The notes: generated by a model from the sequence alone, not told the origin. A stretch of DNA of 64,000 bases from Gemmatimonadota bacterium (GCA_020348925.1 CP070758.1:310001-374000), one strand, 5' to 3'; shown: positions 12,025-50,534, counted from the first letter of the stretch. Made by a program: numbers and translations.

Positions 12025-12101
12025 ATAAAGGAATGATTGAAGTAAAAAAGAACGCAGTCTTCAAAGCACATTCTCTTTGAATGTTCGAGGGGGAAATATC
12101 C

Positions 12102-26228: not shown

Positions 26229-27467
26229 ATGGATACATCTCTGTTTCAGAAAATAGGAGATCGTATAGAGGGCTATAAAGATGAAATGATCCATATGGAA
26301 ACGGAACTGACAGCCATTCCTGCCTTGAGCCCGGAGAACGAAGGCGAGGGGGAATTGGAAAAGTCGAAATACATAAAGAAGGTTCTTGACGAGTTACAGG
26401 TCGACGAGCTTCTCGAGATGAATGCCCCGGACGACCGTGTATCCTGCGGGTACCGGCCGAATCTCGGGGTACGCTTTAAGGGCAAAAGCAGCGAGAGGAC
26501 TGTCTGGGTTATGTCCCATATGGACATTGTCCCCCCGGGTGAGTTATCGTTGTGGGAGAGTGATCCCTACAAGGTGAAAGTTGAGGGGAATAAAATATAC
26601 GGCCGCGGAGTGGAGGATAATCAGCAGGGCCTTGTTGCCTCAATTTTTGCTGTGAAAGCGTTGCAGGATGAAGGGATTCAGCCCGAGCACGATGTCGGAC
26701 TGGTTATTGTGGCCGACGAGGAGACCGGGAGCAAGTTCGGCATTCAGTATGTTCTTCAAAACCACAAGGACATTTTTAAAACTCAGGATCTCATCGTCGT
26801 ACCTGATGCGGGGAATCCTGAAGGGACCATGATCGAGGTCGCTGAAAAGAGCATTCTCTGGCTCAGGTTTGAGACCAAGGGGAAGCAGTGCCACGGATCG
26901 ACTCCGGAAAAGGGCATCAATGCCTTCAAGGCGGCGAGCCATTTGGTCGTCAAGCTCAACGAACTCTATAAAATTTTCGATGCCAGTGACCCTCTCTTCG
27001 ATCCGCCGATCAGTACCTTCGAGCCGACGAAGAAGGAAGCGAACGTGCCGAATGTGAATACCATCCCAGGCGACGATGTCTTCTTCTTCGACTCCCGAAT
27101 TTTACCCAAGTACAATGTCGATGAGATTGAAGCGAAGGTGCAGGAGATGGTCCAGGAGGTCCAGAAAGAGTTCGGGGTAGCCATTACTATAAGCTCGCCG
27201 CAGCGGGAGTCGGCGGCACCGCCCACACCGGCCGATGCCCCGGTGGTTGCTTCGCTGAAGGCGGCCATCAAAGATGTCTATGGTCGTGAGGCAAAAGCGA
27301 TGGGGATCGGCGGCGGCACGGTGGCGGCCTATTTCCGGCACGCCGGCTTCAACGCCGCCGTGTGGTCCACCTTGGACGAGCTGGCCCACCAGCCCAATGA
27401 GTATTGTGTCATCGACAACCTTATTGGCGACACAAAAGTCTTCGCCCATATGATGCTGCAGACGTAA
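26229..27467 (+). CDS. M20-family metallohydrolase (ArgE/DapE-like)
   Basis: SHMDIVPPG, GRGVEDN, DEETGS, GKQCHGS, NTIPG, GGGT, AHQPNEY. Confidence 0.9.
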   Translation: MDTSLFQKIGDRIEGYKDEMIHMETELTAIPALSPENEGEGELEKSKYIKKVLDELQVDELLEMNAPDDRVSCGYRPNLGVRFKGKSSERTVWVMSHMDIVPPGELSLWESDPYKVKVEGNKIYGRGVEDNQQGLVASIFAVKALQDEGIQPEHDVGLVIVADEETGSKFGIQYVLQNHKDIFKTQDLIVVPDAGNPEGTMIEVAEKSILWLRFETKGKQCHGSTPEKGINAFKAASHLVVKLNELYKIFDASDPLFDPPISTFEPTKKEANVPNVNTIPGDDVFFFDSRILPKYNVDEIEAKVQEMVQEVQKEFGVAITISSPQRESAAPPTPADAPVVASLKAAIKDVYGREAKAMGIGGGTVAAYFRHAGFNAAVWSTLDELAHQPNEYCVIDNLIGDTKVFAHMMLQT

Positions 27468-27490
27468 GCCATCCTATCGATAAACAACAG

Positions 27491-27527
27491 AAAGCTGTCG
27501 GAACACATATGTCCCGGCAGCTTTTTT
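27491..27527. terminator. Probable bidirectional terminator between convergent units
   Basis: AAAGCTGTCGG..CCGGCAGCTTTTTT. Confidence 0.65.
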
Positions 27528-27699
27528 GGGACCTGGGACGTTGTCCGTATTGAAGGAATACACTGATCAAGAGCTTCCGATATGTATTTCCGATGATATG
27601 ATCTGATTTCGCCAATGGATCATATAGAATTTCAAAGATAGACTGTCGTGTTGAAAATCGAACATGGTTATTAGATATCCCCAAAAATCGCAGAAGTTA

Positions 27700-27905
27700 A
27701 ATAACCGTCTTTCATTATCGTCTTTTCGGAAATCTTTTCCCATCACTGATGTACCGTAGTACTCCCCAAGTCCTCAATTTAAAATCGCACCACATCATCC
27801 AATATTTTGGTGTGCTAACCGGAAACGAGAGATTCAACAAATACGATGTCGTTGGAACTGCTGTGGCCGACAAATGTCACCGCTTCCAGGAGTTGAAAAG
27901 TTGCC
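27700..27905 (-). pseudogene. Decayed FHA-domain gene
   Basis: Minus-strand translation TFQLLEAVTFVGHSSSNDIVFVESLVSG*HTKILDD..*IEDLGST..(frameshifts)..KISEKTIMKDG follows the FHA pattern GR...DI...VS..H..I....DLGSTNGT...L.DGD. Confidence 0.6.
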
Positions 27906-28069
27906 CCTCTTCTGAGGCTTTCGAACCACGACCTGTTTAGCCCATGAATCCTTACTTTCTGCGAGCTGGGACTGGCATTGTGTGCAATATATACGTTGAA
28001 ATCAATTTGGGTGGCCGCAATTGAGACAGAGAATCATCTATTCATACGCAATGTCTTCTTAAATTTTTC

Positions 28070-28776
28070 CGCCTCTTCTCGACGACTCAAAGGAAGGCTC
28101 CGCCGACTGTCGGGTCAAATTGTATCCCGGCTTTTCCCTTGAATTCCTCGATGGCTGCAGAAGGAGTATGTTTTGCGATAGGGGCGATCGCATGTCATGG
28201 CATCGAAAGCATCCTCGACAGTGATGATCCGGGCTCCGTTTGGTATCTCCAATCCTTCCAATTCTTTTGAATATCCCTCCCCGTCAAAAGCCTCGTGATG
28301 GTGCACAGCAAAGGGAAGAATCTCCGAGACCAGCTCAATGGGCTCTATGATATTGGCTCCCATGAGCGGATGATCTCCGACAGTTCCCCGTTCGACTTTA
28401 TTGAGCTTTCCAAGTCTGCGCAGTATTTTTTCGTCAATCCCTATCTGCCCAACATCAGGCAGGAGGGCTGTCTAACGAAGGAATTCGAACTGCTTGTCGG
28501 ATAGCTTCAGCTCAATACCTATGGCTTTCGCACATCCATTCACTCTGGCCGAATGACCACAGGTCTATGGATCTTTGGCCACGATGGCGGCAAGTATCTT
28601 CAGAATATCAAGAAAAAGCTATTGATATTTCAGTATTCTCTCACGCAGTTCTGCATAGATGATATCGCGTTCCGTCTCGCAACTCGGAACGGTCGTCTGC
28701 AATTGCCCGTATGTTTCTCCAATTTCTCCAGGAGCCGCTCGTTTTCATTCTTAAGCTTTTGAAGTTCATGCATCAT
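28070..28776 (-). pseudogene. Decayed HD-GYP phosphodiesterase gene
   Basis: AKDP*TCGHSARV, LL(P)DVG, HP..GA.I, HHHEAFDGEGY(S), DAFDAMTCDRPYRK, QFDP; three in-frame TAG stops, frameshifts, HD changed to PD and GYP to GYS. Confidence 0.85.
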
Positions 28777-28784
28777 TGGAGACC

Positions 28785-30536
28785 TTATGCCTGAATGATT
28801 TCGGTCCTCTCTAAATTATGGTTGTATCGAATAACGCAATTCCCTCCCGTTTTTTTTGCCACGTACAATGCCTTATCGGCATGTTCCACTAACTTTACCT
28901 TCGACTGAGCATCTTCAGGATAAATAGCGACACCAACGCTCACTGTCAGTCTCCCTCCTGAGATCCCACCCTGCCCCTCAAAAGGGTATTTGTGTACAAG
29001 TTTCCGAATTCGTTCAGCCTGATGCTCCGCATCGTCGGCATCGGTTTCAGGCAGAAGGATGCAAAATTCATCCCCCCCATATCTGGCGACGAAATCAATC
29101 TCTCTGACGTTCGTTTCAAGCAATTGAGCCAGCACTTTCAGGATGTTGTCACCGGGAATATGTCCGAAGGTATCGTTGTATTCCTTGAAATGGTCAATGT
29201 CCATCATGATGAAGGCCAGGGGTCGTTTAAACCTGTTGGAGCGCTTCATCTCTTCACTCAATTTCCGGTTCAAATGCCTTCGATTGGACAATTTTGTCAG
29301 ATCATCTAACGTTGACAGTTCCTCAAGTTTCTTGTTTGATACCTTCAGTTCGGCTTCGGTGCGCCTCACTTTGTCGATCAGCTTTCCCAACCCCACATTC
29401 TCTTTTTGAACCGCGCCCAAAAGGCGCAGTGTCTTCAGGTGTTGTCTTCCGGCAATTTTGAGCTCATGCCGCAATGAGTCGCTTGTTTTTCTCAACTCGC
29501 CACCTAAGCTCTCACGACACGATACGTCTCTGTCTATTATGGTCAGGCCGGTCACATAGCCCTCGGCGTCAGTCAAAGGAAAGCATGTTGTCAGAACCAG
29601 GTGTCTCCTGCCATCTTTCCCGATGCGAGATGATTTCGTTTCTATCGAACCTCCTTCCTCAGCAAGCCTCTTTGAGAGACCTTTTGATCTGCCCCGGTGC
29701 TCAGGCGGATCTAAGAGATCATCCATATTGTTGCCTATAACCTCTTCTTTTCGATAACCATAGAGACTTTCGGCACCAGCGTTCCAGCTCTTGATCGTAC
29801 CATCCATATTTACGGTAAAGATAGCGTCTTTCGTATATTCAGTCAAATTCGCCAAAAAGTTTCGTGTTATTCTGGTCTCCCTCTCTATACTCATTCGTTG
29901 CAGGGCTAATCCCACAATACTCGCAAAGACTTCCAACGTCTCGATGTTTCTGAGAGTCGGTTCATTCTTGTCCGGAGGATAGCTTACGGCGAACACACCG
30001 ATCATAGTATCTCGGTCATCCTGAAAGGGAACAATGACACTACCGTGAAAGGCACGACAGTTTTCAACATCTTTACCAGAGACCTCCTCCGGTGCATTTT
30101 CTTCAACTCCACTCCTTCCTGTAGGAGATTGAATATAATACGATCTGCTGATCTTTTTACCGCTGCGCATGACGCTCTTCACGGCGCTCAATGAAAACGT
30201 TTTTTTCTCCAATTTCCCGAATTTCTGAATCTCGCCTCTGGATACTCTGCACTCCAGTCTCATTTCTGAGCCATGGACGAGACAGACCATAACGCTTTCA
30301 TAACCGAAGCCGTCCTTCATGGCTCTTGCCATTTCTTTCAAAAGATCTTCTCTCTTCCGAAATGTCATAAATTCTGAGATTAGTCGGTGAAGAATAGACA
30401 ACAGCTCCGCTTCTTGCGACGATGACGTCGTCCCAGACGTGGGATTCGGCGAGAGATCATGTCCAATCGAGGGCATCTTGAGGCTATCTTCCTCGACCTT
30501 TCTCTTGCGGTCTATAGAGGGGTATCGGTTATGCAT
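28785..30536 (-). CDS. GAF-PAS-coiled-coil-GGDEF diguanylate cyclase
   Basis: PAS (DAIFTVNMDG.I.SWN.GAE.LYGY), D.LT.L.NRR, DIDHFKEYNDTFGHIPGD, I-site REID, RYGGDEF, AD.ALY.AK..G.N. Confidence 0.93.
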   Translation of the reverse strand: MHNRYPSIDRKRKVEEDSLKMPSIGHDLSPNPTSGTTSSSQEAELLSILHRLISEFMTFRKREDLLKEMARAMKDGFGYESVMVCLVHGSEMRLECRVSRGEIQKFGKLEKKTFSLSAVKSVMRSGKKISRSYYIQSPTGRSGVEENAPEEVSGKDVENCRAFHGSVIVPFQDDRDTMIGVFAVSYPPDKNEPTLRNIETLEVFASIVGLALQRMSIERETRITRNFLANLTEYTKDAIFTVNMDGTIKSWNAGAESLYGYRKEEVIGNNMDDLLDPPEHRGRSKGLSKRLAEEGGSIETKSSRIGKDGRRHLVLTTCFPLTDAEGYVTGLTIIDRDVSCRESLGGELRKTSDSLRHELKIAGRQHLKTLRLLGAVQKENVGLGKLIDKVRRTEAELKVSNKKLEELSTLDDLTKLSNRRHLNRKLSEEMKRSNRFKRPLAFIMMDIDHFKEYNDTFGHIPGDNILKVLAQLLETNVREIDFVARYGGDEFCILLPETDADDAEHQAERIRKLVHKYPFEGQGGISGGRLTVSVGVAIYPEDAQSKVKLVEHADKALYVAKKTGGNCVIRYNHNLERTEIIQA

Positions 30537-30594
30537 GCTTTGAGAATAATTTAGCTCAGAATCAATTGTGCATTCATCTCTTTTTCACCTGAGT

Positions 30595-30726
30595 CTAATC
30601 CCTTTCCAGTTGGGTAATCCTTTGACGAATCTCTTTGGCATCCTCCCTTGCACACAGGCTACGGAACGGATGTTCGGCCTGCAGCCTGATGTTTGATCCG
30701 GAGGTTGTTTCAGTTATTCGATTCAT
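30595..30726 (-). pseudogene. Possible remnant of a third TPR-paralog C-terminus
   Basis: LQAEHPFRSLCAREDAKEIRQRITQLERD resembles the TPR tails AFEGFSALEAKEDLAKVQKELTILE and AIEGFGNLGAKEDVARARKEI. Confidence 0.35.
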
Positions 30727-30870
30727 AATATGTTGTTTTCCTGCTTGTGTGTGTCCTTGCACCTCTGTAACAAGCAATCCAGGCTATACGTGCAATAAGC
30801 CCTTTTCGATATAAAAAGGCCTTTTGCACTACATCCATTATCATTCTTGAAATATTTTAGAATCGTATCC

Positions 30871-32151
30871 TCATGATTGTTTTTGCTCTAAGATAGTGAG
30901 TTCTTTTTGAACTTTGGCCAGATCTTCCTTCGCTTCCAAAGCGCTGAATCCTTCAAAGGCAGATTGAAACATGTTCACAGCCTCTTCGGTATCGCCCTTT
31001 CTCTTGTACATGAGCCCCATTTTGTAGCGGGTTTCCGCCAGACTGAGGGGGCTTTCGTATTTTTCGTTCAGCTTGAGACTTTCTTTAAAAAATTTCTCGG
31101 CTGCAGACCACTCCTCTTTCTGTGTGAAAATAATGCCGAGTATTTTCGTCACTTCGCCCAGACCCAAAAAGTCATCAAGACTGCAACAGAGTCTGTATGC
31201 TCGAGCGCAGTAGTTTGCAGCCATGGTATAATCTGACAGCTCCAGATAGAGCTCCGCTCGGTTCAGATAGATGATGGCCATCAAGGCGAAATCGCCGATT
31301 TTTCTTGAAATCTTGAGACTTTCCTCGTAGCACTCGGAAGCTCTTGTCAAATCCTTTTTATCGCCATACACCATTCCCAGGTTGTTGTATGTCTGGGCAA
31401 GGCCGCGCATATCTCCCAAACTCTGATACCCCAAAATACACTCATGATACTGTTTAATGGCTTTGTCGAACTCCCCTTGGATGGTATAGATGATTCCCAG
31501 GTTGTTGTGAATATGAGTTACCATATGTGTGTAGTCCAACGATTTGGCTATATTCAGGGCCTGTGAATAGTAATTTGTAGCCTGCTGGAAATTTCCTCTT
31601 TCGTAAGAGACGATACCCATACCGGACAGCACATCGGACAGGCCCTTTTGATCTCCGATCTTCTCAAGAATTGTGCGCCCCCGCTTATAGAATTCGAGAG
31701 AGGCGTCCCATTTGTTCAACCGGCAATGAATTTCACCCATCTCCTTGAGCGTCTGCGCCTGAATTTTCACCTCCACCAATTTTTCACTGAGATCGAGAGC
31801 GACCTCATAATCCTCCAGCGCCCGCTCGTAATGGCCGTGCTTTTGGTAAATTTTCCCGATGTTGTATGTGAGATAGAGCTGTTCCCTTTCACCCAGGAGG
31901 GGTCCCGTTCCGCTTTTCACAGCTTTCAATGCTAAGTCGATGAACTTGACGGCCTGCTCCATCGACTCCTCATCCATGGCAAATCGATCGAGCGCGTTTT
32001 CCACCCTCACAGCTGACGATAAAACTCCGGCCAGGGACAAAGCCTCCCTGATACTTTCCGAGTTCTCGCTCCCGGGATTCCTGTCGTATTCGTCCAAGAG
32101 TTCTTCCAGCTTATCGATCAGAGGCTCTGTTTTGTTACTGTCAGCAATCAT
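30871..32151 (-). CDS. Cytoplasmic TPR protein (paralog B) with about 80-aa helical N-terminal region
   Basis: Repeated AQTYNNLG..Y / A..Y..AL motifs; close paralog of 32589-33893. Confidence 0.9.
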   Translation of the reverse strand: MIADSNKTEPLIDKLEELLDEYDRNPGSENSESIREALSLAGVLSSAVRVENALDRFAMDEESMEQAVKFIDLALKAVKSGTGPLLGEREQLYLTYNIGKIYQKHGHYERALEDYEVALDLSEKLVEVKIQAQTLKEMGEIHCRLNKWDASLEFYKRGRTILEKIGDQKGLSDVLSGMGIVSYERGNFQQATNYYSQALNIAKSLDYTHMVTHIHNNLGIIYTIQGEFDKAIKQYHECILGYQSLGDMRGLAQTYNNLGMVYGDKKDLTRASECYEESLKISRKIGDFALMAIIYLNRAELYLELSDYTMAANYCARAYRLCCSLDDFLGLGEVTKILGIIFTQKEEWSAAEKFFKESLKLNEKYESPLSLAETRYKMGLMYKRKGDTEEAVNMFQSAFEGFSALEAKEDLAKVQKELTILEQKQS

Positions 32152-32212
32152 CTCGGTTTATTGTCACGGACACAATTTACCCGCCAAACATGATGGCGCA
32201 TCGCATTTCAAT

Positions 32213-32537
32213 TCACGACTTATAGCTATGGCGCACCGGCAGAAATGGTTTGTGAATAGGCGAGCGTAAATACTCCATTTCCCAGGTCTCCTCGTATCTC
32301 CGCATCGAGACGGCCCCACAGTCCGGCATCCTCATGGTAATATTAAACGCCGTCGCTCCCCGTATCGTCAATATCCGATAATTCACCAATGAAGAGGGAC
32401 CGGTTTGAAAATATGAGGGATCCCCATTGGTCTTGGCTGTACCCGAAAGAGCAACTGCGTCTTTTGAATTCTCAGGCCGCACAGGCAGTTCATTGGGCTA
32501 AAATCCACATGGCAATCTTAACAATACTGTTACTCAT
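32213..32537 (-). pseudogene. Decayed paralog of the gene remnant at 33931-34620
   Basis: Fragments MSNSIVKIAMWILAQ*, YYHEDAGLWGRLDAEI and (frameshifted) NHFCRCAIAISR match YCFNEEIGLWEWIGAQI and DHFSWYS of the upstream remnant. Confidence 0.5.
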
Positions 32538-32588
32538 TATTTTCTTCTCTTTCCCTTTTGTTCCTCGTGCTTTTCCTTGTTTCTCTAT

Positions 32589-33893
32589 CTACGATGTTAT
32601 TGACTCAATCTCTTTCCGAGCCCTGGCCACGTCCTCCTTTGCCCCCAAATTGCCGAAGCCCTCTATGGCATTCCTCAAGCTTTTCAAGGCTTCGTTCGTC
32701 TCTCCCTTTTTGGTGTACATCAATCCGAGTTCGAAATGGGTTTCAGCCACATTCAAGGGATTCTCATACTTCGTACTTAACTTCAAACTCTCCTCAAAGA
32801 ATCCCTGGGCAATGGCCCATTCCCTTTTGTGAGTGAAGATGACGCCCAAGATTTTGGTTGCTTCCGCCAGGCCCAGGTTGTCATCCAAGCGGCTGCAGAG
32901 TTTATAAGCCCGTCTGCAGTAGTTGGTCGCCATACTGAAATCTGAGAAGTCCAAGTACAGTTCGGCTCTGTTCAAAAAGGTGATCGCCATAAGTGTGAAG
33001 TCGCCGCTCTCTCTGGCAATTTTGATGCTGTTCTCATAGCACGCTGACGCATTGACCAGATCCTTTTTGTCTCCGTATACCATCCCCAGGTTGTTGTACG
33101 TCTGGGCCAATCCTCGTTGATCTCCGGCAGTCTGATAGCCGGCAACGCACTCCTGATAGTGGGTGATGGCCTTGTCGAAATCCCCCTGAACACAGCACAG
33201 AATACCCAGGTTGTTCTGTGCATCAGCAATAATCTGGGCAAGGTTTCCACCCTGAGCCGTCTCCAGCGACTGCATGAATTGTTCGCTGGCTTTTTCGAAC
33301 TCTCCTCGTTCCAAAAAGACGGCGCCCATATCGGAGAGGACTTCCGAGATACCCTTCTTATCTTTAACTTCCTCAAAAAGCTTAAGACTTTCATCATACT
33401 TCTGGAGGGCCTGTTCCCACTTGTTTCTCCTGAAGTGTATTTGGCCTATTCCCTTCAAAGCCAGGGCCCTGACTTTTAATGCCTGAACCAACGTACCATC
33501 ACCATCGTTCAACAGCTCGCTCAGTTTCAAAGCACTTTCATAATGCTCCAAAGCCCGTGTGAAATCCCCGTGAGTTTGATAGGCTCTCCCGATATTGTAA
33601 ATATCCTGGGCGAAAATAAGTCGCTCCCGCTGACCTATTCGCTGATCCCCCTGAACCTTTATAACCTGAAGAGCGAGATCGACGTACTTGATAGCCTGTT
33701 CTATCGACTCCTCCCACATGGCCGACTGGTTGGGGGCATTCTCGACCCGCACTGCAGACGATACTTCTCCGATCAGCGCCAGAGCCTCCTCAACCCATTC
33801 CGGATATTCCCTCTTCTTTTTCCTTTCGTAATCGCCCACTATCTCCCGCAGTCTGTCTATCAGAGGCTCAATTTTCCCGGTGTCAGCTCGCAT
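32589..33893 (-). CDS. Cytoplasmic TPR protein (paralog A)
   Basis: TPR repeats; shares EPLID.L, SSAVRVENA, EES.EQA.K..DLAL and RGLAQTYNNLGMVYGDKKDL with paralog B. Confidence 0.9.
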   Translation of the reverse strand: MRADTGKIEPLIDRLREIVGDYERKKKREYPEWVEEALALIGEVSSAVRVENAPNQSAMWEESIEQAIKYVDLALQVIKVQGDQRIGQRERLIFAQDIYNIGRAYQTHGDFTRALEHYESALKLSELLNDGDGTLVQALKVRALALKGIGQIHFRRNKWEQALQKYDESLKLFEEVKDKKGISEVLSDMGAVFLERGEFEKASEQFMQSLETAQGGNLAQIIADAQNNLGILCCVQGDFDKAITHYQECVAGYQTAGDQRGLAQTYNNLGMVYGDKKDLVNASACYENSIKIARESGDFTLMAITFLNRAELYLDFSDFSMATNYCRRAYKLCSRLDDNLGLAEATKILGVIFTHKREWAIAQGFFEESLKLSTKYENPLNVAETHFELGLMYTKKGETNEALKSLRNAIEGFGNLGAKEDVARARKEIESITS

Positions 33894-33930
33894 TGATTCA
33901 ATCTCCTAAAATTTATTACCTGCTGATAGC

Positions 33931-34620
33931 CTATGTATTGCAGGCAAAATTAGGGAAGCTCCTTGTTGAGTACCAGGAGAAGTGATCCGAATCTGCCTCA
34001 ACCTTGATGGGTTCACCACAATCATCCGCACCAATCTGGGCACCGATCCATTCCCAAAGACCGATTTCTTCATTGAAACAGTAGCAACCAAGATCCCCTT
34101 GCCCCTCCGCATTCGATATATCGAGATCCGTTACTTTATGAGTAAGTGCCAGGCTTTTTTCGAACACATTTCCATGGGATCCAAAAGCGAGATCCCCATC
34201 CGACATCATACTGTCACAGCCGAGATTCATGCCCTTCAGAACGTCTGTTGAAACAGCGTCCGGAGGACTCCTTGGTCTCGATTTGATGCAAACTTCATTG
34301 TCGTTAGCTGAAGGTTGATAACGGTCTTTGAGTTTGAGCTCTCCGCCAGCCTCTCGACCGATGAACACCTCAACGCGTGTTTCGTCTGCTGCAATGACTG
34401 GAGTTCCTTTTCATTCACTCTGCAGCTCAATAAATTTGAGGGCTGTGGCCGGTACACCGCGGCTCCCCTCCGGTTCAACCATTATCGAATTGAGAGAGGG
34501 AGGCGAACCGTTTTCAGAGGCCTCTCCAAAACTTGCGGATAAATCGCCTATAAAAGCCTCAAACTCTAACATCGCAACGAATTTCTTTGAAGAGGGGAAA
34601 TTACTTTTCTTCGTTCAACC
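33931..34620 (-). pseudogene. Decayed small exported beta-rich protein with C-terminal HFSxY motif
   Basis: Frame of ORF 33931-34368 continues upstream through TGA at 34411-34413 to KKFVAML..(degenerate signal-like segment)..ALKFIEL; core FIGREAGGELKL..YCFNEEIGLWEW..DHFSWYS. Confidence 0.55.
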
Positions 34621-34697
34621 ATGCTCCTTTTCCCTCCGAAAATTGTCTGCAACGGTTTTGGGGTTCATTCTCTCTCCGCCAACCCAGGGGTTGCAAG

Positions 34698-34740
34698 AAA
34701 AAACCGGACCACCGAAGAAGTGCGCGCTTCGGCAGCCCGG
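34698..34740 (-). terminator. Riboswitch expression-platform terminator
   Basis: CCGGGCTGCCGAAG-CGCGCACTT-CTTCGGTGGTCCGG-TTTTTT; the left arm is the 3' end of the aptamer. Confidence 0.8.
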
Positions 34741-34824
34741 CTATCATAATCGGTTGGTACTCGAACCGATTTTAGACCCGTAGCTTTGTGTCTCCCGGTT
34801 TCCCGGGGTTTACCCTTTTCGAAC
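34727..34824 (-). ncRNA. Cyclic di-GMP-I (GEMM-I) riboswitch
   Basis: TTCGAAAAGGGTAAACCCCGG-GAAA-CCGGGAGACACAAAGCTACGGGTCTAAA..TATGATAGCCGGGCTGCCGAAG: GNRA loop, AAA bulge, GAC.CAAAGC junction, tetraloop receptor TCTAAA/TATGA, G at the G20 specificity position. Confidence 0.9.
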
Positions 34825-34865
34825 GCTCTTCCCGAAGAACTGCCCCAGGAAGTATTTCTCAAGTA

Positions 34866-34882
34866 TGCGAAAACCATGCCGA
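34866..34882 (-). promoter_or_regulatory. Sigma54 (-24/-12) promoter upstream of the riboswitch
   Basis: TCGGCATGGTTTTCGCA = GG-N10-GC; implied +1 about 30 nt before the aptamer. Confidence 0.7.
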
Positions 34883-35115
34883 ATCGGTGAAAAGGAATCA
34901 AAGTTTTCACCTCAAAACGGTTAGAGAGAGAACCTTCGATCCTGTCGAGCGAGGGGCGAACAATGGTAACAAATTATTTTGGAACGAATTTCCAAGAATA
35001 AGTGACGGAACTTGTGAGGCCGGAGGATACATGCATCCCCCAAAAAAATAGGAAGGAGTGCCGTGTTAAAATGCGGTTGTTTGAATAGAGACGAAAGAGC
35101 TTTTGGGGAATATTC

Positions 35116-36159
35116 CTAATACTGGGGAGTATTACTCAGTTCTTCGACGGGTTCTGTGCTGTTTGATGTGGTTTTATCGAGTCCGTAGCGCTTCATACGG
35201 TAGCGGAGTCGATCGCGAGTGATTCGAAGGAATCGCGCGGCTTCACTCACATTCCAGTGACACATGTTCAATGTCTCTTCGATCAATTTTCGCTCCACAT
35301 CGGCCAAGGGTAGTCCCCAGGGCGGAATATTGAAAGTAACATCGCCCCACGGACTGATCTCCATTGGGGGTCGTGGCACTTGCGAGCGTCGATCTTTGAT
35401 CCGGCGGTCGATGTCGAAATTTTGTGGCTTCAGCAACTTTTCGCCGGCCAAAAAGACACCTTTTTCAATCGCGTTTTTCAGTTCTCTCACATTCCCCGGC
35501 CACGAATAGCTCCTCAGGAGGCCTTTCGCCCCTTTTGAGAAACCTTCTATATCCCTTTCATACTCTGAATTAAACTGATCCAGAAAATGGTCCGCGAGGA
35601 GGAGTACGTCCTCTCCTCGTTCTCTCAGAGGGGGAAGATGCAAGCTGATAACATTTAAACGATAATACAAATCCTCCCGAAACGTGCCCTCGTTGACCGC
35701 TTTCTCCAAATCGATATTGGTTGCAGCCAGGATCCTCACTGTGACTCGTATCTCCTCGGAGCCGCCTATCCGCATGAATCTCTTTTCCTCTATGGCCCTC
35801 AATATTTTTGATTGAAGCTTGAGACTCATCGTGCCAATTTCATCCATGAAAAGAATACCGCCATGCGCCAACTCAAAGAGCCCGTTCTTTTGAATCTTGG
35901 CGTCCGTAAAAGCTCCCCGTTCGTAGCCGAAGAGTTCTGCTTCCAGTAAATTCTCGGGAATTGTCGAGCAGTTGACGTCGACAAAAGGCTGCTCAGGACG
36001 GCCGTACTTGTGAATCAGTCTGGCTATCAGTTCTTTACCAGTACCGCTTTCTCCCCGGATCAGGACCGTCATTTTTGAATTCCGGGCGGCCTTTTTGGCC
36101 GTCTCAATGATTTCCAGGAGCCTTTTGTCTTCTCCGACGATATTTATCTCGTGATCCAT
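35116..36159 (-). CDS. Sigma54-dependent activator (AAA+ plus Fis HTH) lacking an N-terminal regulatory domain
   Basis: GESGTGKELIA, ELFGYERGAFTDA, LFMDEIG, FREDLYYRLNV, WPGNVREL, NVSEAARFL.I.R..LRYRMKRY; in-frame TAA two codons upstream of the ATG. Confidence 0.93.
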   Translation of the reverse strand: MDHEINIVGEDKRLLEIIETAKKAARNSKMTVLIRGESGTGKELIARLIHKYGRPEQPFVDVNCSTIPENLLEAELFGYERGAFTDAKIQKNGLFELAHGGILFMDEIGTMSLKLQSKILRAIEEKRFMRIGGSEEIRVTVRILAATNIDLEKAVNEGTFREDLYYRLNVISLHLPPLRERGEDVLLLADHFLDQFNSEYERDIEGFSKGAKGLLRSYSWPGNVRELKNAIEKGVFLAGEKLLKPQNFDIDRRIKDRRSQVPRPPMEISPWGDVTFNIPPWGLPLADVERKLIEETLNMCHWNVSEAARFLRITRDRLRYRMKRYGLDKTTSNSTEPVEELSNTPQY

Positions 36160-36439
36160 TACTTATCCAGTTCCATACATTCTTCTGATCCTCGGGAATC
36201 CGAATCCTTACTATGTGCAGCATGTGAAAAGTTGACACCCGTTCGGACGTTTCTAGAGTTTTCGAAATGGTATTTCAAAGCAATGTCAAAGTCAATCCAC
36301 AGTTTCACCAGAAACGAGAGACAGAGATGTTGAGTCACTCAACTTGTCCGCACGCTTCCCCGTTCAAGTTAGAGCATTGCGAGTATCAATATTCTTGAGT
36401 GACATTGAACGTCAATGTCTAAAATACGACAGTCTAAGA

Positions 36440-36455
36440 AGCGAAATCCGTACCA
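36440..36455 (-). promoter_or_regulatory. Sigma54 (-24/-12) promoter upstream of the activator gene
   Basis: TGGTACGGATTTCGCT = GG-N10-GC, same TTTCGC -12 variant as 34866-34882. Confidence 0.62.
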
Positions 36456-36725
36456 TCACAAAACAGACCCCTCTCACATTATATAATTCATTAAAATACA
36501 ATAAATAATTCGTACAGAGAGATACCTCGGAATCGAGGTATACAAAATGTCGAATAGCCAAAGGCGGGTTATTCAGCCCATTTCTTCGAAGGCTTCCTGT
36601 TGAACAGGTAGAAAGGTCGTTGCAAAACGAAAAGAATGGTTACCCTGTAAAAGACTTACTGGTTCAAGGAATTGATCGGACTCTGATTTGAACTCTCGAT
36701 TCCATAATTGAAAGACCAAGAAATT

Positions 36726-38318
36726 TTAAGGTTCACAGCTATCTGTCCCCAGAATAACGTTCACGATGTTGATGAGGTCAAAGAGGTCGATTACGGCATC
36801 GGCGTTGCAATCGGCAGCCCAGAGAGAATCACCCGTCAGGATCTCTGTTCCCAAAATATGATTGACAATTTCCAACAGATCAAAAAGATCGATACTGTCA
36901 TCACCGTTGACATCGCCCCTGGCTTGCTGAGACTGGCATTCGCCCTCGTAATCTACATTGACTCCGACGGCAGCAGCTTCGCAGGCGTTGGAGTATGTTC
37001 TCCCGTTGCAGCCGCACACAGGATCCCAGACATTCGGGCACCCCTGGGGTCTTGGCTCACAGACTCCCTGACCGGAGCAGTCGCCCGTTTCTTTTTCGCA
37101 ATAGTTCCCTGATGGGCAGTCGCCAATCGTTGAGCAGGCAATGGCGCATTCACCGATGTAGTCTATATTCACACCGGAGAGGGCCGCCTCACACTCGTTT
37201 GAGTAGGTCCTGCCGTCACAGCCGCAGACAGGATCCCATAGCGGAGGGCACAGGGTTGGTTTCGGTTGGCACCTTCCGTTGCCAGTGCAATTCCCCGTCA
37301 CCTTTTCGCAGTATTCCTCAGGTGAACAATCATTATTTTTAGAACACGAAACTGAGCACTCACCCTCATAGGCTATGTTCATTCCCAACATTGCCGCGAT
37401 ACAAGCGTTGATGTAAGTTCTTCCGTCGCAGCCGCAGACAGGATCATGTAGTATCGGGCAGACGGTCGGCTTCAGATTGCACGTTCCCTGACCGTTACAA
37501 TCGCCCACTGCCTTTGAGCAGTATTCTCCCAAGTCACACTCTCGGTTGCCTCTGCAGTAAAAGAGCCCGCATTCACCCTCAAATTCAACGTTCACTCCAG
37601 CCATGGCGGCGAGACACTCGTTCGAGTACGTGATGCCATCGCAGCCGCAGACGGGATCCACGATGTCAGGACATACTCCCGGCATGGGTTGACACGATCC
37701 CTGACCCTCGCAATCTCCTGTCGCCTTGGCACAATATTCATCTTGGCCGCAGTCGACGTTGAGCGAACAAGATGCCGCAGCGCATTCACCGTCATAGTCC
37801 ACATTCTCCCCGGCGAGGGCGGCATAGCAGGCATTGCTGTATGTTACTCCATCACAGCCGCAGACAGGATCCCAAACAGGTAAACATGACGCCGGTATGT
37901 CGGCGCACGCGCCTGTCTCATCGCAGTTGCCTGTTGTCTTTGTGCAATACTCCCCTCCTTGACAGTCATTGTTGTCGATGCAGCCCTCGGAGCACTCTCC
38001 TTCGTAGTCGACACTCATTCCGGCCTGGGCGGCAAAGCAGTAATTTGTATAGGTCTCGCCGTCACATCCGCATACAGGGTCCCAGATATCCTGACATGTG
38101 TTCGGTTTCGTTGCACAAGTTCCCAAATCATCACAGCCTCCGGTCTCCTTCATGCAGTATTCTGCAGGGCCGCAGTCGGTATTTTTCGAACAATCGGTGG
38201 CATTTCCGGTGTTCTCACCGGCGTTTCCGGTGCCCAGGGTGCTCACTCTTGGAACCGTGATACTGAAACCCACGATACACAGCACGATCAGAACTGAAGG
38301 TAACATATAGCGCACCAT
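36726..38318 (-). CDS. Secreted protein with six Cys-rich Kazal-type repeats and C-terminal dockerin
   Basis: Signal peptide; six units of about 70 aa with 10 Cys each containing DPVCGC(D/N)G.TY.N.C...GEC; dockerin RGDVNGDDSIDLFD / ADCNADAVIDLFD. Confidence 0.9.
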   Translation of the reverse strand: MVRYMLPSVLIVLCIVGFSITVPRVSTLGTGNAGENTGNATDCSKNTDCGPAEYCMKETGGCDDLGTCATKPNTCQDIWDPVCGCDGETYTNYCFAAQAGMSVDYEGECSEGCIDNNDCQGGEYCTKTTGNCDETGACADIPASCLPVWDPVCGCDGVTYSNACYAALAGENVDYDGECAAASCSLNVDCGQDEYCAKATGDCEGQGSCQPMPGVCPDIVDPVCGCDGITYSNECLAAMAGVNVEFEGECGLFYCRGNRECDLGEYCSKAVGDCNGQGTCNLKPTVCPILHDPVCGCDGRTYINACIAAMLGMNIAYEGECSVSCSKNNDCSPEEYCEKVTGNCTGNGRCQPKPTLCPPLWDPVCGCDGRTYSNECEAALSGVNIDYIGECAIACSTIGDCPSGNYCEKETGDCSGQGVCEPRPQGCPNVWDPVCGCNGRTYSNACEAAAVGVNVDYEGECQSQQARGDVNGDDSIDLFDLLEIVNHILGTEILTGDSLWAADCNADAVIDLFDLINIVNVILGTDSCEP

Positions 38319-38379
38319 CGTCTTTTCCCCTTGTTTCTCAGAACATCACAAAAAGATCAACTCGAACCGGACTTGAAAT

Positions 38380-41358
38380 CTACTTGAGGAACATCATCTT
38401 TTTCTTCGCGGTGAATTCTCCGGCCTGCAAGCGATAAAAGTAGACTCCGCTGGAGACGTCGTCTCCTTCCTCGTCCATTCCGTCCCAGGTTACAGTATGG
38501 TAGCCGGGCTCTTTGACACCGTCCACCAATGTCCTCACCCTCTGCCCGAGAAGGTTGTAAACATTCAGGGTGACGTGGGAGGGGGATTGATCACTGACCA
38601 CTGAATACTCGATAGTGGTTGTCGGATTGAAGGGATTGGGATAATTCTGAGCGAGACCGAACGCAACCGGAGCCGTTGAATCCTCCTTGAGCAGAGCCAT
38701 AAACTTGGCGAAGTGTTCATCTGAGAAGTGAGGTTTCAGCGACTCGAGGTATTCCAGCACTTCGGGAGTAAGGGCTGCCCTTTGCGCACCGGGTTGGCAC
38801 ACCCCCATCCCCAAAACGACGTTCACAATACCGATGCCATCCACGATATCAATGCTCCCATTTCCAGTGCAATCGGCCCCCCAAATGTGAGAGGGGACGG
38901 GTTCGACAAGACCCAGGATGATATTGACAACTCGTATGACATCCAAAATATCCACACTCCCATCCTCCGTCGCATCTCCTCGAACCGGCACGATTCGAAG
39001 CCAATCGATAATGTTCTCCATGATATGTGCCCGTGTCTCCTCGGAGTCATGTACGGGATCGATGATAGATTCGAAACCAAAAGGTAAAAAGACCAGACGG
39101 TGCTCACCACTGTACTTAATTCCTGCCGCTCTCCCGGAAGGCTCGTACGTAAAGAGAGCGCTGGCTTCAGGCATGGGAGCGATAGCGTCCGGGGAGAGTT
39201 GAATATCAGCACATTCATCCCCGGCAATGGTCACAAAATTGATATTACCGCTGATGGGATCACCTCCAATGCCGTAGATGATACCCTCATCGCTGTTATC
39301 GGCCATCCATTCAGCGTGCAGATACTCATTTAAAAATGAGGAGGATTGGATTTCAGTGGCAACATTCTGGCCGGAGATAAAAAGCTTTCCACCGCCATCC
39401 AAAAATGCGGCCAAATGTGTCTGGTCCTCCATTGAGAGGGTCTGTTGTGTGAAGCCGGTGGACCAGATGACGATCTCATACGTCTCGAGCCAGTCTGAAT
39501 CGCATGGACCGGCGCTCTCGTAATCCCAATGGTCAAAGATCTGTTCAAGGCTGTCTAAGGCTGCCCGATAGTATCCTTCAACTTCATGTTTCGACTCATT
39601 CGCGGTGGTATCGTAATCGTCATCAACCAAAAGAATATCAGGCTGCCCGATAGTCACTCTCAAGGATAGCTGCGTTATTTCTCCTCCAACATCTGACCAA
39701 ATATCCAGGGTAAAGTAGGCGTAATGGACATCGGCCGCCTCATCCACAGAAAAAGAGAAAGGTGCGGCACTGTTGTCGCCTGACGAATCGAAAGGAATAT
39801 TACTGAAGGAGGTTTCGTCAACGAGAAAATGTATGCTCTGATCCAGCGTGGAGAGTTTTCCCGAAACGCTCGTTGCATCTGCCCCGTAGTTTAACACACT
39901 TATTACCACATCCACTGTTTCTCCCGGATCGGGTTTCCCGTTGTCGTTCCCATCCGCGTCAACAACCTGGGTATCGTCATAGATGAAGAGGGGGTTTTTG
40001 GTAAAGACCTCCAAGTCCGCTATCATAATCGACTGCGAATCGCTGATATTCATCACCGCCACTTGAGAGAGATCGCCACTGTTGATCCGCGAGTTCGGAT
40101 TTGTGAAGAGGCTGAACATTCGATTCCCCGATGAACCGGGATACGAATCGCCGTCATCACCGCGGCCATTTCCCCTGTCCATATCGTTGCAGCCATCGGC
40201 CGACTCCAGATCCACCAGTTTGTGGTCCTCGTCATCGTTCTGCGTCGTGACGGTGTTATCGACGTGCCAGATGAGCAAACCTGTATTATAGAGATTGACA
40301 TCAAACCCGACATTCTGGCGGTTTTCCACCAGAAAATATTCATCCCCAGGGGCACCTTCGGTCCACAATTTGTAGACTTCGGGAAACTCCTCGACCTGAG
40401 CTATCGGCTGCGCGGGAAGGTTATCCGTCACCACGATAGGAGTCACCCAGCCTAACCGCTCTTTTGACCAAGCGCAGAAATGGACAGGCAGCTCAGGCGA
40501 TTGGCCGTCGCCGCCCCAGCTCCCAGAGCCCATCATGGCCCAGTTGCCGACGCCTTCTGAGCTGTCGTCCCGGTCGTAGAGATCCGGCAGGCCGAGCACA
40601 TGACCGTACTCATGGCAGAAGACTCCGATAGTAATAAGACTCCCCTCCTCATCCTCCTCCGGCTCCATGGCGTATGAATATGCGCGCACTCCATCGTCGG
40701 TCACATAGCCATCGCCTGTTCCGTCTTCATTCTCCGGTATTCTCCATTTGTGCGACCAGATATCGAGGGAATCGCCTGTCTCCTCTCCGCCGGGTCCCGC
40801 GTGGACGATAAAGAGGGCGTCGACGAACCCATCGCCGTCCTCGTCGAACTGGGAAAAATCGACGAAGGGGTCGGCCGCCACGACCGCATCGTAGGCCAGC
40901 CTTCGCCGGTTCTGCGGCCACTCCCCACGGCCAAACCCATCACCGGCATAGTATTCATTGGTCTGGGGCAGTAAAATCCAATTCGTGACCACACCGCTGA
41001 TGAAGAACTGCCCGTAGGAGACCTCCTGATAATAGTCGTACATACTGCCCGTGGGGACAGCTCCTGTTGAATCGAATAACAGTGTCTCATACGCTGAGGG
41101 AGGATGCTGCCCCCTGTTCGCTCTGTTGTCTGTAAATTCAACCAGCAGGACGATGGCCTTCCTGCTGCCTGTCACCGGGGCCCTGAGAGGCTCGGGCTCA
41201 TCCACGCCGGCCTGCGAATGCCGCAGAAAAGCCCCTATCTTTCTGCTGGACTCATTCTTGCTGAGGAGTCCCGGTTTGGCCGAGACAGCCAAAAGCGAGT
41301 TGGTCGAAACAAAGACCAGAAAGAGTAAACACCAAACGATCCCTTTTGCCCTTCTCAT
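38380..41358 (-). CDS. M6-family (immune inhibitor A-like) metalloprotease with dockerin and FlgD-Ig/sorting-type C-terminal domain
   Basis: Signal peptide; LLVEF.D, YY.EVSYG, HAG.G.E, IGVFCHEYGHVLGLPDLYD, W.MM.SGSW, EYFLVENRQ; dockerin; QNYPNPFNP..SSGVYFYRL. Confidence 0.92.
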   Translation of the reverse strand: MRRAKGIVWCLLFLVFVSTNSLLAVSAKPGLLSKNESSRKIGAFLRHSQAGVDEPEPLRAPVTGSRKAIVLLVEFTDNRANRGQHPPSAYETLLFDSTGAVPTGSMYDYYQEVSYGQFFISGVVTNWILLPQTNEYYAGDGFGRGEWPQNRRRLAYDAVVAADPFVDFSQFDEDGDGFVDALFIVHAGPGGEETGDSLDIWSHKWRIPENEDGTGDGYVTDDGVRAYSYAMEPEEDEEGSLITIGVFCHEYGHVLGLPDLYDRDDSSEGVGNWAMMGSGSWGGDGQSPELPVHFCAWSKERLGWVTPIVVTDNLPAQPIAQVEEFPEVYKLWTEGAPGDEYFLVENRQNVGFDVNLYNTGLLIWHVDNTVTTQNDDEDHKLVDLESADGCNDMDRGNGRGDDGDSYPGSSGNRMFSLFTNPNSRINSGDLSQVAVMNISDSQSIMIADLEVFTKNPLFIYDDTQVVDADGNDNGKPDPGETVDVVISVLNYGADATSVSGKLSTLDQSIHFLVDETSFSNIPFDSSGDNSAAPFSFSVDEAADVHYAYFTLDIWSDVGGEITQLSLRVTIGQPDILLVDDDYDTTANESKHEVEGYYRAALDSLEQIFDHWDYESAGPCDSDWLETYEIVIWSTGFTQQTLSMEDQTHLAAFLDGGGKLFISGQNVATEIQSSSFLNEYLHAEWMADNSDEGIIYGIGGDPISGNINFVTIAGDECADIQLSPDAIAPMPEASALFTYEPSGRAAGIKYSGEHRLVFLPFGFESIIDPVHDSEETRAHIMENIIDWLRIVPVRGDATEDGSVDILDVIRVVNIILGLVEPVPSHIWGADCTGNGSIDIVDGIGIVNVVLGMGVCQPGAQRAALTPEVLEYLESLKPHFSDEHFAKFMALLKEDSTAPVAFGLAQNYPNPFNPTTTIEYSVVSDQSPSHVTLNVYNLLGQRVRTLVDGVKEPGYHTVTWDGMDEEGDDVSSGVYFYRLQAGEFTAKKKMMFLK

Positions 41359-42333: not shown

Positions 42334-42389
42334 ATCACGTCCTCCGGACATGTTGTGACAACCTTGAGTATTCGTTCATTGTTCCATCG

Positions 42390-50295: not shown

Positions 50296-50534
50296 CGCAT
50301 CCCTCCCTTCATGAAGAATATTGCCCCTGACATTAAACAATTTTTCTCATAAGATCAAGCAAAATCTTCACTAAAAAATAAATTTTGCCTGTCTTTCAAT
50401 TAAAAATCCTTGTACCTTTCTCCCATAATTTATTATATTTCAATTACCTAATGGTTGGGAGAGTGGACGAGACACAAAAAGTGCTCAAAGAGAACATTCT
50501 CTGTCATTGTGTAAGGATATACTGTTTCTTTTAA

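Follow-up and report, generated by a model that had tools for sequence, protein, structure and literature searches.

In the account we favour, held with slightly better than even confidence, the window analysed here (a 64,000-nucleotide stretch of Gemmatimonadota DNA) carries a decaying version of a peptide-signalling system that is conserved among diderm bacteria of the FCB group and present in several uncultured lineages. The tail of a lipoprotein would be self-released, imported and bound by cytoplasmic TPR receptors feeding sigma54 and c-di-GMP outputs, an arrangement that resembles RRNPP signalling in its logic and not in its parts. The analysis shows the parts themselves, their linkage, the lipoprotein fold and the promoter enrichment.

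According to this model, a sigma54 promoter would drive a lipoprotein of ~200 residues, whose ZU5 domain would cut itself between His-Phe and the following Ser/Thr. The resulting 7-10-residue tail would be shed and imported by a co-encoded Opp/Dpp-type ABC transporter, then bound by cytoplasmic TPR receptors that are free-standing or fused to a STAND ATPase, Ser/Thr kinase or HD-GYP domain. These receptors would set the activity of a dedicated sigma54 activator and of c-di-GMP enzymes, forming a feedback loop onto the lipoprotein promoter. In the window's genome, the lipoprotein-TPR unit would have been duplicated, brought under a sigma54 promoter and a c-di-GMP ON riboswitch, and linked up with a cyclase. 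Later, both signal genes would have died along with HD-GYP and FHA, with the activator, TPRs and cyclase staying open. What is left may listen for peptides made by neighbours, or may run as a positive loop of sigma54 and c-di-GMP that needs no peptide.

Layout and decay of the window copy

The order of elements given by an earlier note, all on the minus strand, was confirmed from 36456 down to 27700 (Table 1). Four of the eight genes in the cassette are pseudogenes (both lipoprotein genes, HD-GYP and FHA), and the activator, both TPR genes and the cyclase are still open.

Table 1. Features of the cassette in window coordinates, with the basis for each assignment.
Position	Strand	Feature	Basis
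36440..36456	-	Candidate sigma54-type -24/-12 site, TTCGC variant, ~300 nt 5' of activator	Shuffle p 0.015
35116..36159	-	Sigma54 activator (AAA+ and Fis HTH), GAFTDA loop	Pfam, motifs, quick tree
34866..34882	-	Candidate sigma54-type -24/-12 site, TTCGC variant, 42 nt 5' of aptamer	Shuffle p 0.04
34728..34824	-	c-di-GMP-I riboswitch aptamer	Rfam RF01051, 78.4 bits (cut-off 35)
34696..34741	-	Intrinsic terminator, 15-bp hairpin and U-run, overlapping aptamer	-24.6 kcal/mol
33916..34668	-	Decayed ZU5-fold lipoprotein gene, copy 1	Sequence matches; fold from homologue P0021
32589..33893	-	Intact TPR-A: cytoplasmic TPR protein, helical region at the N-terminus	Pfam, motifs
32212..32537	-	ZU5-fold lipoprotein remnant, copy 2	Profile E 6.6e-7 and 0.008 in two frames
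30871..32151	-	Intact TPR-B, paralogous to TPR-A	All-helical model, pLDDT 89.6
30598..30711	-	Possible remnant of a third TPR gene (last helix pair)	Weak: E 0.2, E 0.03
28785..30536	-	GAF-PAS-GGDEF diguanylate cyclase, intact, RxxD I-site	Pfam, motifs; paralogue in L006 cassette
28115..28776	-	HD-GYP pseudogene with frameshifts and three TAG stops; PD in place of HD	E 1.8e-25 with X at stops
27700..28037	-	Zinc-ribbon-FHA pseudogene	FHA 7.6e-5, zinc-ribbon 1.8e-3, X at stops

The gene breaks noted previously are genuine, combining stops, frameshifts and motif losses. Short-read contigs span 33951-36800 (run X1), 30898-35195 (X2) and 27400-30788 (X1) with zero gaps, and list no difference at the stops of the lipoprotein genes or of HD-GYP, so an assembly-error reading of the breaks was rejected; the two runs may be source samples of the assembly. 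The FHA stop at 27817 reads as a sense codon in X2. Stop-codon recoding was also considered, since TAG accounts for every HD-GYP stop and TGA for two of the lipoprotein stops. It was rejected because of the frameshifts, the lost HD motif and the lost lipobox Cys, and because adjacent genes end in TGA, TAG and TAA. Strain differences in the TPRs and activator are synonymous in seven of eight cases (TPR-A, two synonymous and one conservative; TPR-B, four of four synonymous). Scans for sigma70 promoters and terminators found no more sites than in shuffled sequence.

Neither G000 nor G001 (87% complete) yielded an intact lipoprotein copy, and no lipoprotein remnant was found in the gap of the L006 cassette or ahead of the AAA-TPR genes. 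Related loci (L024, L026, L027, L056 and L067) contain DZR-FHA genes that are intact.

A putatively self-cleaving lipoprotein family

By sequence, the two genes previously picked out for an HFSxY motif are dead copies of a family of ~200-residue ZU5-fold lipoproteins that end in His-Phe, Ser/Thr and a 7-10-residue tail. Copy 1, 47% identical to the intact P0018, has three in-frame stops and has lost its lipobox Cys, and retains HFS and a duplicated tail ending AISR. The decayed gene reaches to 33916, past the 33931 limit of the open reading frame noted earlier at 33931-34368. Copy 2 is frameshifted and partly deleted, and its tail (HFC..AIAISR) lies in a different frame from the E 6.6e-7 match.

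The fold assignment comes from a model of P0021 (pLDDT 79), whose top four structural matches are all ZU5 proteins, namely ankyrin and UNC5b (Z 10.7, 10.2, 9.9 and 8.3; rmsd 3.2-3.8 A over 114-122 aligned residues). GAIN domains follow, and FIIND is also among the matches. Foldseek likewise puts ZU5 first for the lipoprotein model, at E 0.004. Pfam ZU5 scored in one of 22 family members (E 0.009), all ESM Atlas leads fell below 0.9 (ZU5 at 0.78), and the lipoprotein profile gave nothing significant against sequences of solved structures. A word-index protein search of the C-terminal part against longer proteins returned no matches; a full HMMER search succeeded. A metagenome scan yielded one locus, a ZU5-like stretch inside a large S-layer protein, which was left out of the counts.

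His and Phe are invariant in all 23 aligned phmmer matches, followed by Ser in 22 and Cys in one, and the KSB1 genes found by profile have an HF[S/T] ending in all but three frames. The tail is 7-10 residues long in 130 of 134 lipoproteins, a count that is partly circular because 36 loci were found with an HFSRYA-containing pattern and the counts were filtered on HF[S/T]. Tail sequences include SRYAxxxx and TQYxLSxR, and the first four residues are near-constant. The lipoprotein bodies vary widely, in tandem arrays of up to eight. Some members repeat the tail past the ZU5 strand and two retain it without HF, which suggests that the tail matters outside the fold.

An extract of PMC3210808 describes PIDD cleavage at HF/S through a Ser/Thr/Cys nucleophile. 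The lipoproteins carry the same motif, His-Phe then Ser/Thr/Cys before the last strand, and on fold and motif together we infer that they would cleave themselves at this position. In the animal ZU5 proteins covered by the same extract, the fragments remain associated after cleavage (PMC3210808). Since the tail is the last beta-strand of the modelled ZU5 domain, release would therefore need an extra event; the near-constant first four residues also limit signal diversity and fit a structural role.

A rival account is an envelope-damage or proteolysis sensor, in which the cut tail stays buried until unfolding, pulling or degradation frees it, much as in the tethered agonist of adhesion GPCRs or in NLRP1, and import and TPR sensing then take place in the same cell. 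The last-strand position of the tail and the GAIN and FIIND matches agree with such a sensor, and varied bodies, arrays and repeated tails would amount to many sensors giving one signal. We nevertheless consider it rather unlikely, as no conserved damage-response genes were seen near the loci, and tail and TPR types with separate importers coexist in one genome, as signal channels would. Two genomes (G196 and G211) each hold two operons with different tails and different TPR clades. A damage sensor would share most of its steps with our favoured account, from which it differs in its trigger.

Linkage across genomes

That homologues of these genes co-occur elsewhere was checked at 75 lipoprotein loci from KSB1, Calditrichota, Ignavibacteria and relatives, with 16 loci carrying ZU5 inside large proteins as controls. 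The exported proteins and the TPRs recur in company with the activator clade and with sigma54 promoters. Same-strand genes encoded TPR proteins at 61 loci, sigma54 activators at 30, oligopeptide-binding proteins (SBP_bac_5) at 30, OppB at 26 and OppC at 25, against one activator and no TPR, SBP_bac_5, OppB or OppC in the controls; the locus counts are non-independent because the genomes are related. Outside the training set of the TPR profile, 34 of 40 loci still had a TPR-family gene. The importer, found at 30 of 75 loci, rises to 18 of the 36 loci flanked by 6 kb on either side (six of 20 in Gemmatimonadota), and L071 has the complete run oppB-oppC-oppD-oppA-activator-lipoprotein-TPR. Sigma54 sites precede the gene in 38 of 67 upstream regions, compared with 0.33 expected and none on the reverse strand. 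Profile matches to the lipoprotein occur in 59 of 167 KSB1 genomes, some of them ZU5 in large proteins, and in 41 of 151 Gemmatimonadota.

Linked activators nearly all belong to one clade, and the window activator falls within it in a quick tree, where support is 91 for the clade and 98 for the input-less subclade. The protein has Sigma54_activat from residue 7 and HTH_8 in Pfam, without an input domain, and Walker A/B, the L1 loop (here GAFTDA), the arginine finger and the HTH are all present; rpoN was found in the genome by Pfam. Being only AAA+ and HTH, it must be controlled in trans or via its expression. PspF and HrpR/S are input-less activators of the same kind. Unlike them, the linked activators form their own clade with GAFTDA (30 of 37 activator frames), and its members mostly retain a degenerate receiver, lacking the acidic pocket and lysine; five have none. 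An extract of PMC2941729 reports that a GAFTDA substitution lets NorR escape repression yet stay active.

Putative TPR receptors

TPR-A and TPR-B are 54% identical and lack a signal peptide or hydrophobic N-terminus. The earlier comparison with Rap is upheld in structure: TPR-B matches MalT domain III (Z 31.2, rmsd 3.4 A, 341 aligned), Rap-peptide (28.2), NprR (25.4) and AimR (24.4), the RRNPP matches spanning Z 21-28. APPBP2 outscores Rap in structure, however, and unrelated eukaryotic TPRs score as high as Rap. By sequence RapF reaches E 3e-16 against 1e-34 for LGN/Pins, and Pfam RNPP_C scores 25.5 bits, under its 26.5 cut-off. No close TPR orthologue was found, the best outside matches being at most 37% identical. 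Among 40 other genomes, the sole relative with a TPR match carries an AAA-TPR protein; row G001_AAA was disregarded in the TPR tree. AAA_16-TPR and kinase-AAA_16-TPR proteins occur in operons elsewhere.

Binding of tail by TPR gains weak backing from a predicted complex of the L041 pair of another genome, in which the TPR protein and the last 30 lipoprotein residues, including residues before the cut, scored 0.50 against 0.00 for the best control, with no interface returned. Of 157 solved pairs, 116 reach the mark for this score, as do two of 215 mismatches; among these, just 18 solved pairs and both mismatches lie at or below 0.60. The L041 runs agree in at least 79% of contacts, with partner pLDDT of at least 45.

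Alternatively, the lipoprotein might be an output: a sigma54-induced envelope protein, cleaved or uncleaved, whose tail does no more than complete its fold, with TPRs and transporter sensing another ligand, such as foreign peptides, cell-wall fragments or a sugar. The top match of the TPRs, MalT domain III, is a sugar sensor; the promoter precedes the lipoprotein; and the best fold matches are to ankyrin and UNC5 ZU5 domains, which are not known to self-cleave. In the window, moreover, TPRs and activator are intact, with their mostly synonymous differences, and both lipoprotein genes are dead. We think it improbable all the same, because it leaves unexplained why the protein ends 7-10 residues past an invariant HF-nucleophile, and offers no account of duplicated tails, of tails kept without HF, or of the weak pass of the complex prediction.

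Predicted wiring to sigma54 and c-di-GMP

Within the window, the riboswitch matches RF01051 over model positions 1-87, above the gathering threshold, and is a full member, ordinary as an RNA. The 5' arm of the terminator, which is absent from the list of a simple terminator scan, is the 3' strand of the aptamer, and a c-di-GMP ON switch is therefore predicted. By the family matrix, the sigma54-type site ahead of the aptamer reaches 10.4 bits, which places it fourth in the window and below the weakest family site (11.6); it sits at the family-conserved position ahead of the lipoprotein gene. The activator's own site has a near-identical copy ahead of another riboswitch in the genome, where TTCGC-type sites precede four of nine riboswitches against a 1% background. 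Pairing of sigma54 promoter and c-di-GMP-I riboswitch is thus a genome-wide habit of this organism. A direct scan, with L020, L048 and L052 left out, found a riboswitch 5' of the lipoprotein at one of 33 loci, and none was seen in 35 KSB1 genomes (63 candidates scored in each).

The link to c-di-GMP recurs in Gemmatimonadota, where 18 of 20 loci have a TPR-HD-GYP fusion and four genomes a riboswitch upstream. The cyclase of the window, with strong PAS and GGDEF domains and a weak GAF (E 0.005), carries the GG(D/E)EF active-site and RxxD I-site motifs of a diguanylate cyclase. No GGDEF gene lies on the same strand at any of the 75 loci, and one lies nearby at one of 20 Gemmatimonadota loci; judged by this distribution, the cyclase is a local addition and no conserved member of the wider system.

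It had been proposed that the cassette is a working, self-contained circuit, its TPRs binding activator or cyclase directly, and linkage of the circuit parts has stood. The predicted ZU5 self-cleavage site, which offers a candidate signal, and the oligopeptide importer of many intact operons had been missed, and self-containment now seems very improbable. Intact activator, TPRs, cyclase, riboswitch and promoters would fit it, as would a second activator-TPR-GGDEF-HD-GYP cassette (L006) in the same genome, and the fusions make TPR control of c-di-GMP enzymes plausible. Against this, half the genes are dead, both signal genes included; no linked-clade importer was found in the genome, its three peptide-binding proteins lying outside that clade; three of four strain differences in the unconserved cyclase alter the protein; and in the sole sister genome the activator is followed by neither TPR nor cyclase.

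Relation to known systems and significance

Peptide signalling by export, processing and reimport to cytoplasmic TPR receptors has been described mainly in Bacillota. The present system resembles RRNPP pairs (Rap-Phr, NprR-NprX, PlcR-PapR and AimR-AimP) in that an exported precursor adjoins its putative receptor, the candidate signal is a short C-terminal peptide, an oligopeptide permease would serve for import, and the receptors are TPR superhelices with an N-terminal helical region. It differs in its diderm hosts, its importer, often within the operon, and its precursor, a folded ~200-residue lipoprotein with its own predicted cleavage site in place of a propeptide of less than ~100 residues cut by external proteases. 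Its putative receptors have no HTH and occur as fusions with, or next to, STAND, kinase, HD-GYP and sigma54-activator modules. The window TPRs resemble those of STAND-TPR proteins such as MalT, without ATPase or LuxR domain. The autoproteolytic ZU5, GAIN and FIIND domains of PIDD, Nup98, CARD8, NLRP1 and adhesion GPCRs share the fold and HF-S before the last strand; here, by contrast, the ZU5 domain is the entire mature lipoprotein and only the tail follows. According to an extract of PMC3482391, bacterial ZU5 occurs in large polymorphic-toxin and surface proteins. No system with such a layout was found in the searchable literature.

Tentatively, and with appreciably less confidence than in the favoured account, we suggest a scheme that may be widespread in diderm FCB bacteria: a lipoprotein made of one self-cleaving ZU5 domain may store its last strand as a tethered peptide, shed, imported by a dedicated ABC transporter and read by modular TPR sensors coupled to sigma54, Ser/Thr kinases, STAND ATPases and c-di-GMP. 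TPR-receptor peptide signalling would then extend to KSB1, Gemmatimonadota, Calditrichota and Ignavibacteria, all diderm phyla, with a self-cleaving ZU5 precursor replacing the protease-matured propeptide. The animal-type HF-S site would have a bacterial use, the tethered strand being comparable to the agonist of adhesion GPCRs or to the fragment of NLRP1. As the predicted 7-10-mer ligands can be read from the genome, synthetic peptides and three proteins in purified form would suffice to test the scheme. The copy in the window is half dead, and its value lies in the added c-di-GMP wiring and its record of the system's decay: if the scheme is true, it would represent a lineage that ceased making the signal yet kept the receptors.

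Results

Organisation and decay of the cassette

Every element that the earlier note had listed for the cassette was recovered on the minus strand, in the order it had claimed. Four genes are intact (the input-less sigma54 activator, the paralogues TPR-A and TPR-B, and the GAF-PAS-GGDEF cyclase); the other four, namely both lipoprotein genes, HD-GYP and zinc-ribbon-FHA, are broken, and a third TPR gene has left a weak trace. The breaks are reproduced without gaps in short-read contigs, which may stem from the source samples. One FHA stop is a sense codon in one short-read run, so decay is still segregating among strains. Lipoprotein copy 1 shares 47% identity and a duplicated tail with homologue P0018, and copy 2 was detected with a close-relative profile; as both belong to the lipoprotein family, the (lipoprotein, TPR) unit is present twice in tandem. 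The window's genome, a single 5.04 Mb contig that carries rpoN and has only one relative within the genome set, yielded no intact lipoprotein gene.

Survival of the window TPRs after loss of both lipoproteins lends some weight to an alternative in which the lipoprotein is an output of the system, a reading we consider quite unlikely. Among the best-supported strain differences listed, synonymous changes make up 7 of 8 in the genes for the TPRs and the activator, against 1 of 4 in the cyclase gene, a hint that the receptors may still be under selection.

A ZU5-fold lipoprotein family

With copy 1 as query, HMMER returned 26 matches among 1.84 billion representatives: two pieces of the window gene itself, a weak match in a 1486-aa protein, and 23 proteins or fragments of ~200 aa that end in HFSRY(A)xxx, most of which have a signal peptide and lipobox. 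The best structural matches to the model of homologue P0021 are ZU5 domains (Z 10.7, 10.2, 9.9 and 8.3), followed by GAIN domains amid unrelated beta-sandwiches; Foldseek also ranked ZU5 first, weakly. The HF|S motif immediately precedes the last strand of this model, as it does in PIDD and Nup98 (PMC3210808). Two weak profile matches elsewhere in the window's genome are probably ZU5 domains of other proteins.

Conservation of the gene neighbourhood

A pattern scan yielded 36 loci labelled KSB1, Calditrichota, Ignavibacteria, Bacteroidota and Gemmatimonadota. Within the KSB1 phylum, the lipoprotein profile matched 59 of 167 genomes; 40 free-standing matches were fetched as loci and 16 matches within large proteins served as controls. 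The final set held 75 loci and 136 genes, one duplicate having been removed. The gene-neighbourhood search proposed in the earlier note upheld the co-occurrence of TPR, activator and lipoprotein homologues: same-strand neighbours were the TPR family (61/75), activator (30), SBP_bac_5 (30), OppB (26), OppC (25), Ser/Thr kinase (21), AAA_16 (16), HD-GYP (5) and GGDEF (0), against 0/16 TPR, 0/16 SBP and 1/16 activator in the controls. Because the genomes are related, neither these counts nor those that follow are independent trials. Of the 66 loci whose sequence extends far enough, 51 have a TPR gene beginning no more than 1.5 kb downstream of the lipoprotein. Training of the TPR profile used the first 36 loci, themselves initially tagged with window TPR-B alone; the family was also found in 34 of the 40 later loci, outside the training set.

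Two layouts recur: oppB-oppC-oppD-oppA-activator-lipoprotein-TPR, and lipoprotein array-AAA-TPR-TPR-kinase-AAA-TPR. Locus L024 is window-like, with a DZR-FHA gene and an input-less activator. Among Gemmatimonadota, 41 of 151 genomes gave profile matches, and the best 20 of these 41 all had the TPR (20/20), and most had a TPR-HD-GYP fusion (18/20).

Promoters, activator and riboswitch

Scanning with the -24/-12 sigma54 consensus showed that 38 of 67 loci carry a site no more than 330 nt ahead of their first lipoprotein gene, where 0.33 would be expected; the reverse strand had none. The window's own two sites are weak by the family matrix and fit a TTCGC variant seen ahead of four of nine riboswitches in the same genome. 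In a quick tree (support 91), the window's activator groups with the linked ones in a single clade of 33 rows, and the window genome's 22 other activators fall apart from it. Most linked activators carry a degenerate receiver, absent from the window's subclade. GAFTDA occurs in 30 of 37 activator frames; NorR with a GAFTDA change is described in PMC2941729 as active and escaping repression.

The 5' arm of the window's terminator is the 3' strand of the c-di-GMP-I aptamer, so c-di-GMP should favour read-through, which together with the downstream cyclase may form a positive loop. In four Gemmatimonadota genomes (G044, G306, G277 and G330) a riboswitch of this class immediately precedes the lipoprotein gene, and the order at locus L054 (sigma54 site, riboswitch, lipoprotein, TPR-HD-GYP) mirrors the window's logic.

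Related loci in the same genome

A second cassette compares with the window at 59% (activator), 34% (truncated TPR) and 44% (REC-GAF-PAS-GGDEF), and adds a REC-HD-GYP. Its TPR is short at the N-terminus, its activator is input-less and a sigma54-like site is present; no lipoprotein was found in it. The gene ahead of its activator we take to be formiminotransferase-cyclodeaminase-like. The sister genome has this activator without that cassette's TPR, cyclase or HD-GYP. All three SBP_bac_5 proteins of the window's genome have long branches and fall apart from the linked group. No lipoprotein remnant was found upstream of the AAA-TPR gene at L007. The L008 units are possible targets of the window activator or of the cyclase's c-di-GMP, and the OPT transporter is a possible alternative importer.

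Coordinates of features in the window, its genome (G000) and fetched loci (L)
Location	Strand	Feature
Window 12081-13628	+	CHASE2 protein
Window 27817		FHA stop codon; sense in run X2
Window 33916-33990; L053:5714-6514		Duplicated tail (also P0018, P0019): first segment after HF in strand position, then xRYAxxx segment
Window 36726-41358	-	Directly upstream of cassette, same strand: exported Kazal-repeat protein with dockerin; M6 peptidase with dockerin and FlgD/T9SS-type tail
Window 41575-42351	-	Separate intact HD-domain (HD_5) gene
Window 48328-50340	-	OPT-family oligopeptide transporter, 12 kb off cassette, housekeeping context
G000:C1:4477585-4484353 = L006:3586-10354		Second cassette, all genes open; SBP_bac_5 gene and histidine kinases face it
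L007:3801-7397 (G000:C1:2269801-2273396)		AAA-TPR protein, window's TPR family; 1 kb past it, sigma54 site and c-di-GMP-I riboswitch, then exported proteins
L008:4514-4613; 11383-11472		Sigma54 site and riboswitch units ahead of minor-pilin-like genes
G000:C1 near 2915500 and 2210300 (-)		Weak lipoprotein-profile matches, E 0.001 and 0.005
L024:14025-14618		Broken SBP_bac_5-like gene between DZR-FHA and input-less activator (recognised by eye)
L026:1360-8549		Eight-lipoprotein array, three tails: SRYAIGTEY and SRYAMAYGW alternating, one SRYVMAYGW
L041:2650-2718; 5036-5104		Weak tRNA-like Rfam matches (36 and 30 bits), immediately behind a lipoprotein gene and behind the TPR gene
L084:6442-7137; L094:7956-8597		Lipoprotein-family members: HF lost, SRY tail retained

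Discussion

These results establish the parts of the system together with its fold, motif, linkage and promoters. We propose that the lipoprotein would be cleaved at HF|S, and that the short tail would then be released, imported and bound by the TPRs; the direction of control in the circuit is likewise what we infer. The lipoproteins have hydrophobic N-termini and the window TPRs lack them, so the whole lipoprotein could not meet the TPRs; a transported fragment could. The main difficulty is that animal ZU5 fragments remain associated after cleavage (PMC3210808), so that the tail may come free only once the domain is unfolded or proteolysed. That need raises the alternative of a damage sensor, its tail freed when the protein unfolds or is proteolysed, which we judge unlikely.

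As to tail binding by the TPRs, the TPR-B model resembles MalT-III (Z 31.2), APPBP2 (30.1), Rap with peptide (28.2), LGN (25.7), NprR (25.4) and AimR (24.4), a predicted structure compatible with peptide binding and not specific to RRNPP. Tail types track TPR clades, a pattern that shared descent alone could yield; more telling are genomes G196 and G211, each with two operons whose tails differ. Predicting the L041 TPR with the last 30 residues of its lipoprotein gave a weak pass, with a score of 0.50 against 0.00 for the best control, and returned no interface (agreement at least 79%, partner pLDDT at least 45). Of 157 solved pairs, 116 reach the mark for this score, as do 2 of 215 mismatches; those scoring 0.60 or below comprise only 18 solved pairs and both mismatches.

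No description of the gene set was found in the searchable full-text literature, which covers few subscription journals. PMC3482391 and PMC8195603 deal with bacterial ZU5 domains as parts of toxins, of large surface proteins and of apoptosis-like systems. Its exported protein is not a propeptide of the RRNPP kind, and the system is therefore not classed as a member of RRNPP. Nonetheless, we propose that it works in the RRNPP manner. Overall, the system is real and conserved, and apparently undescribed.
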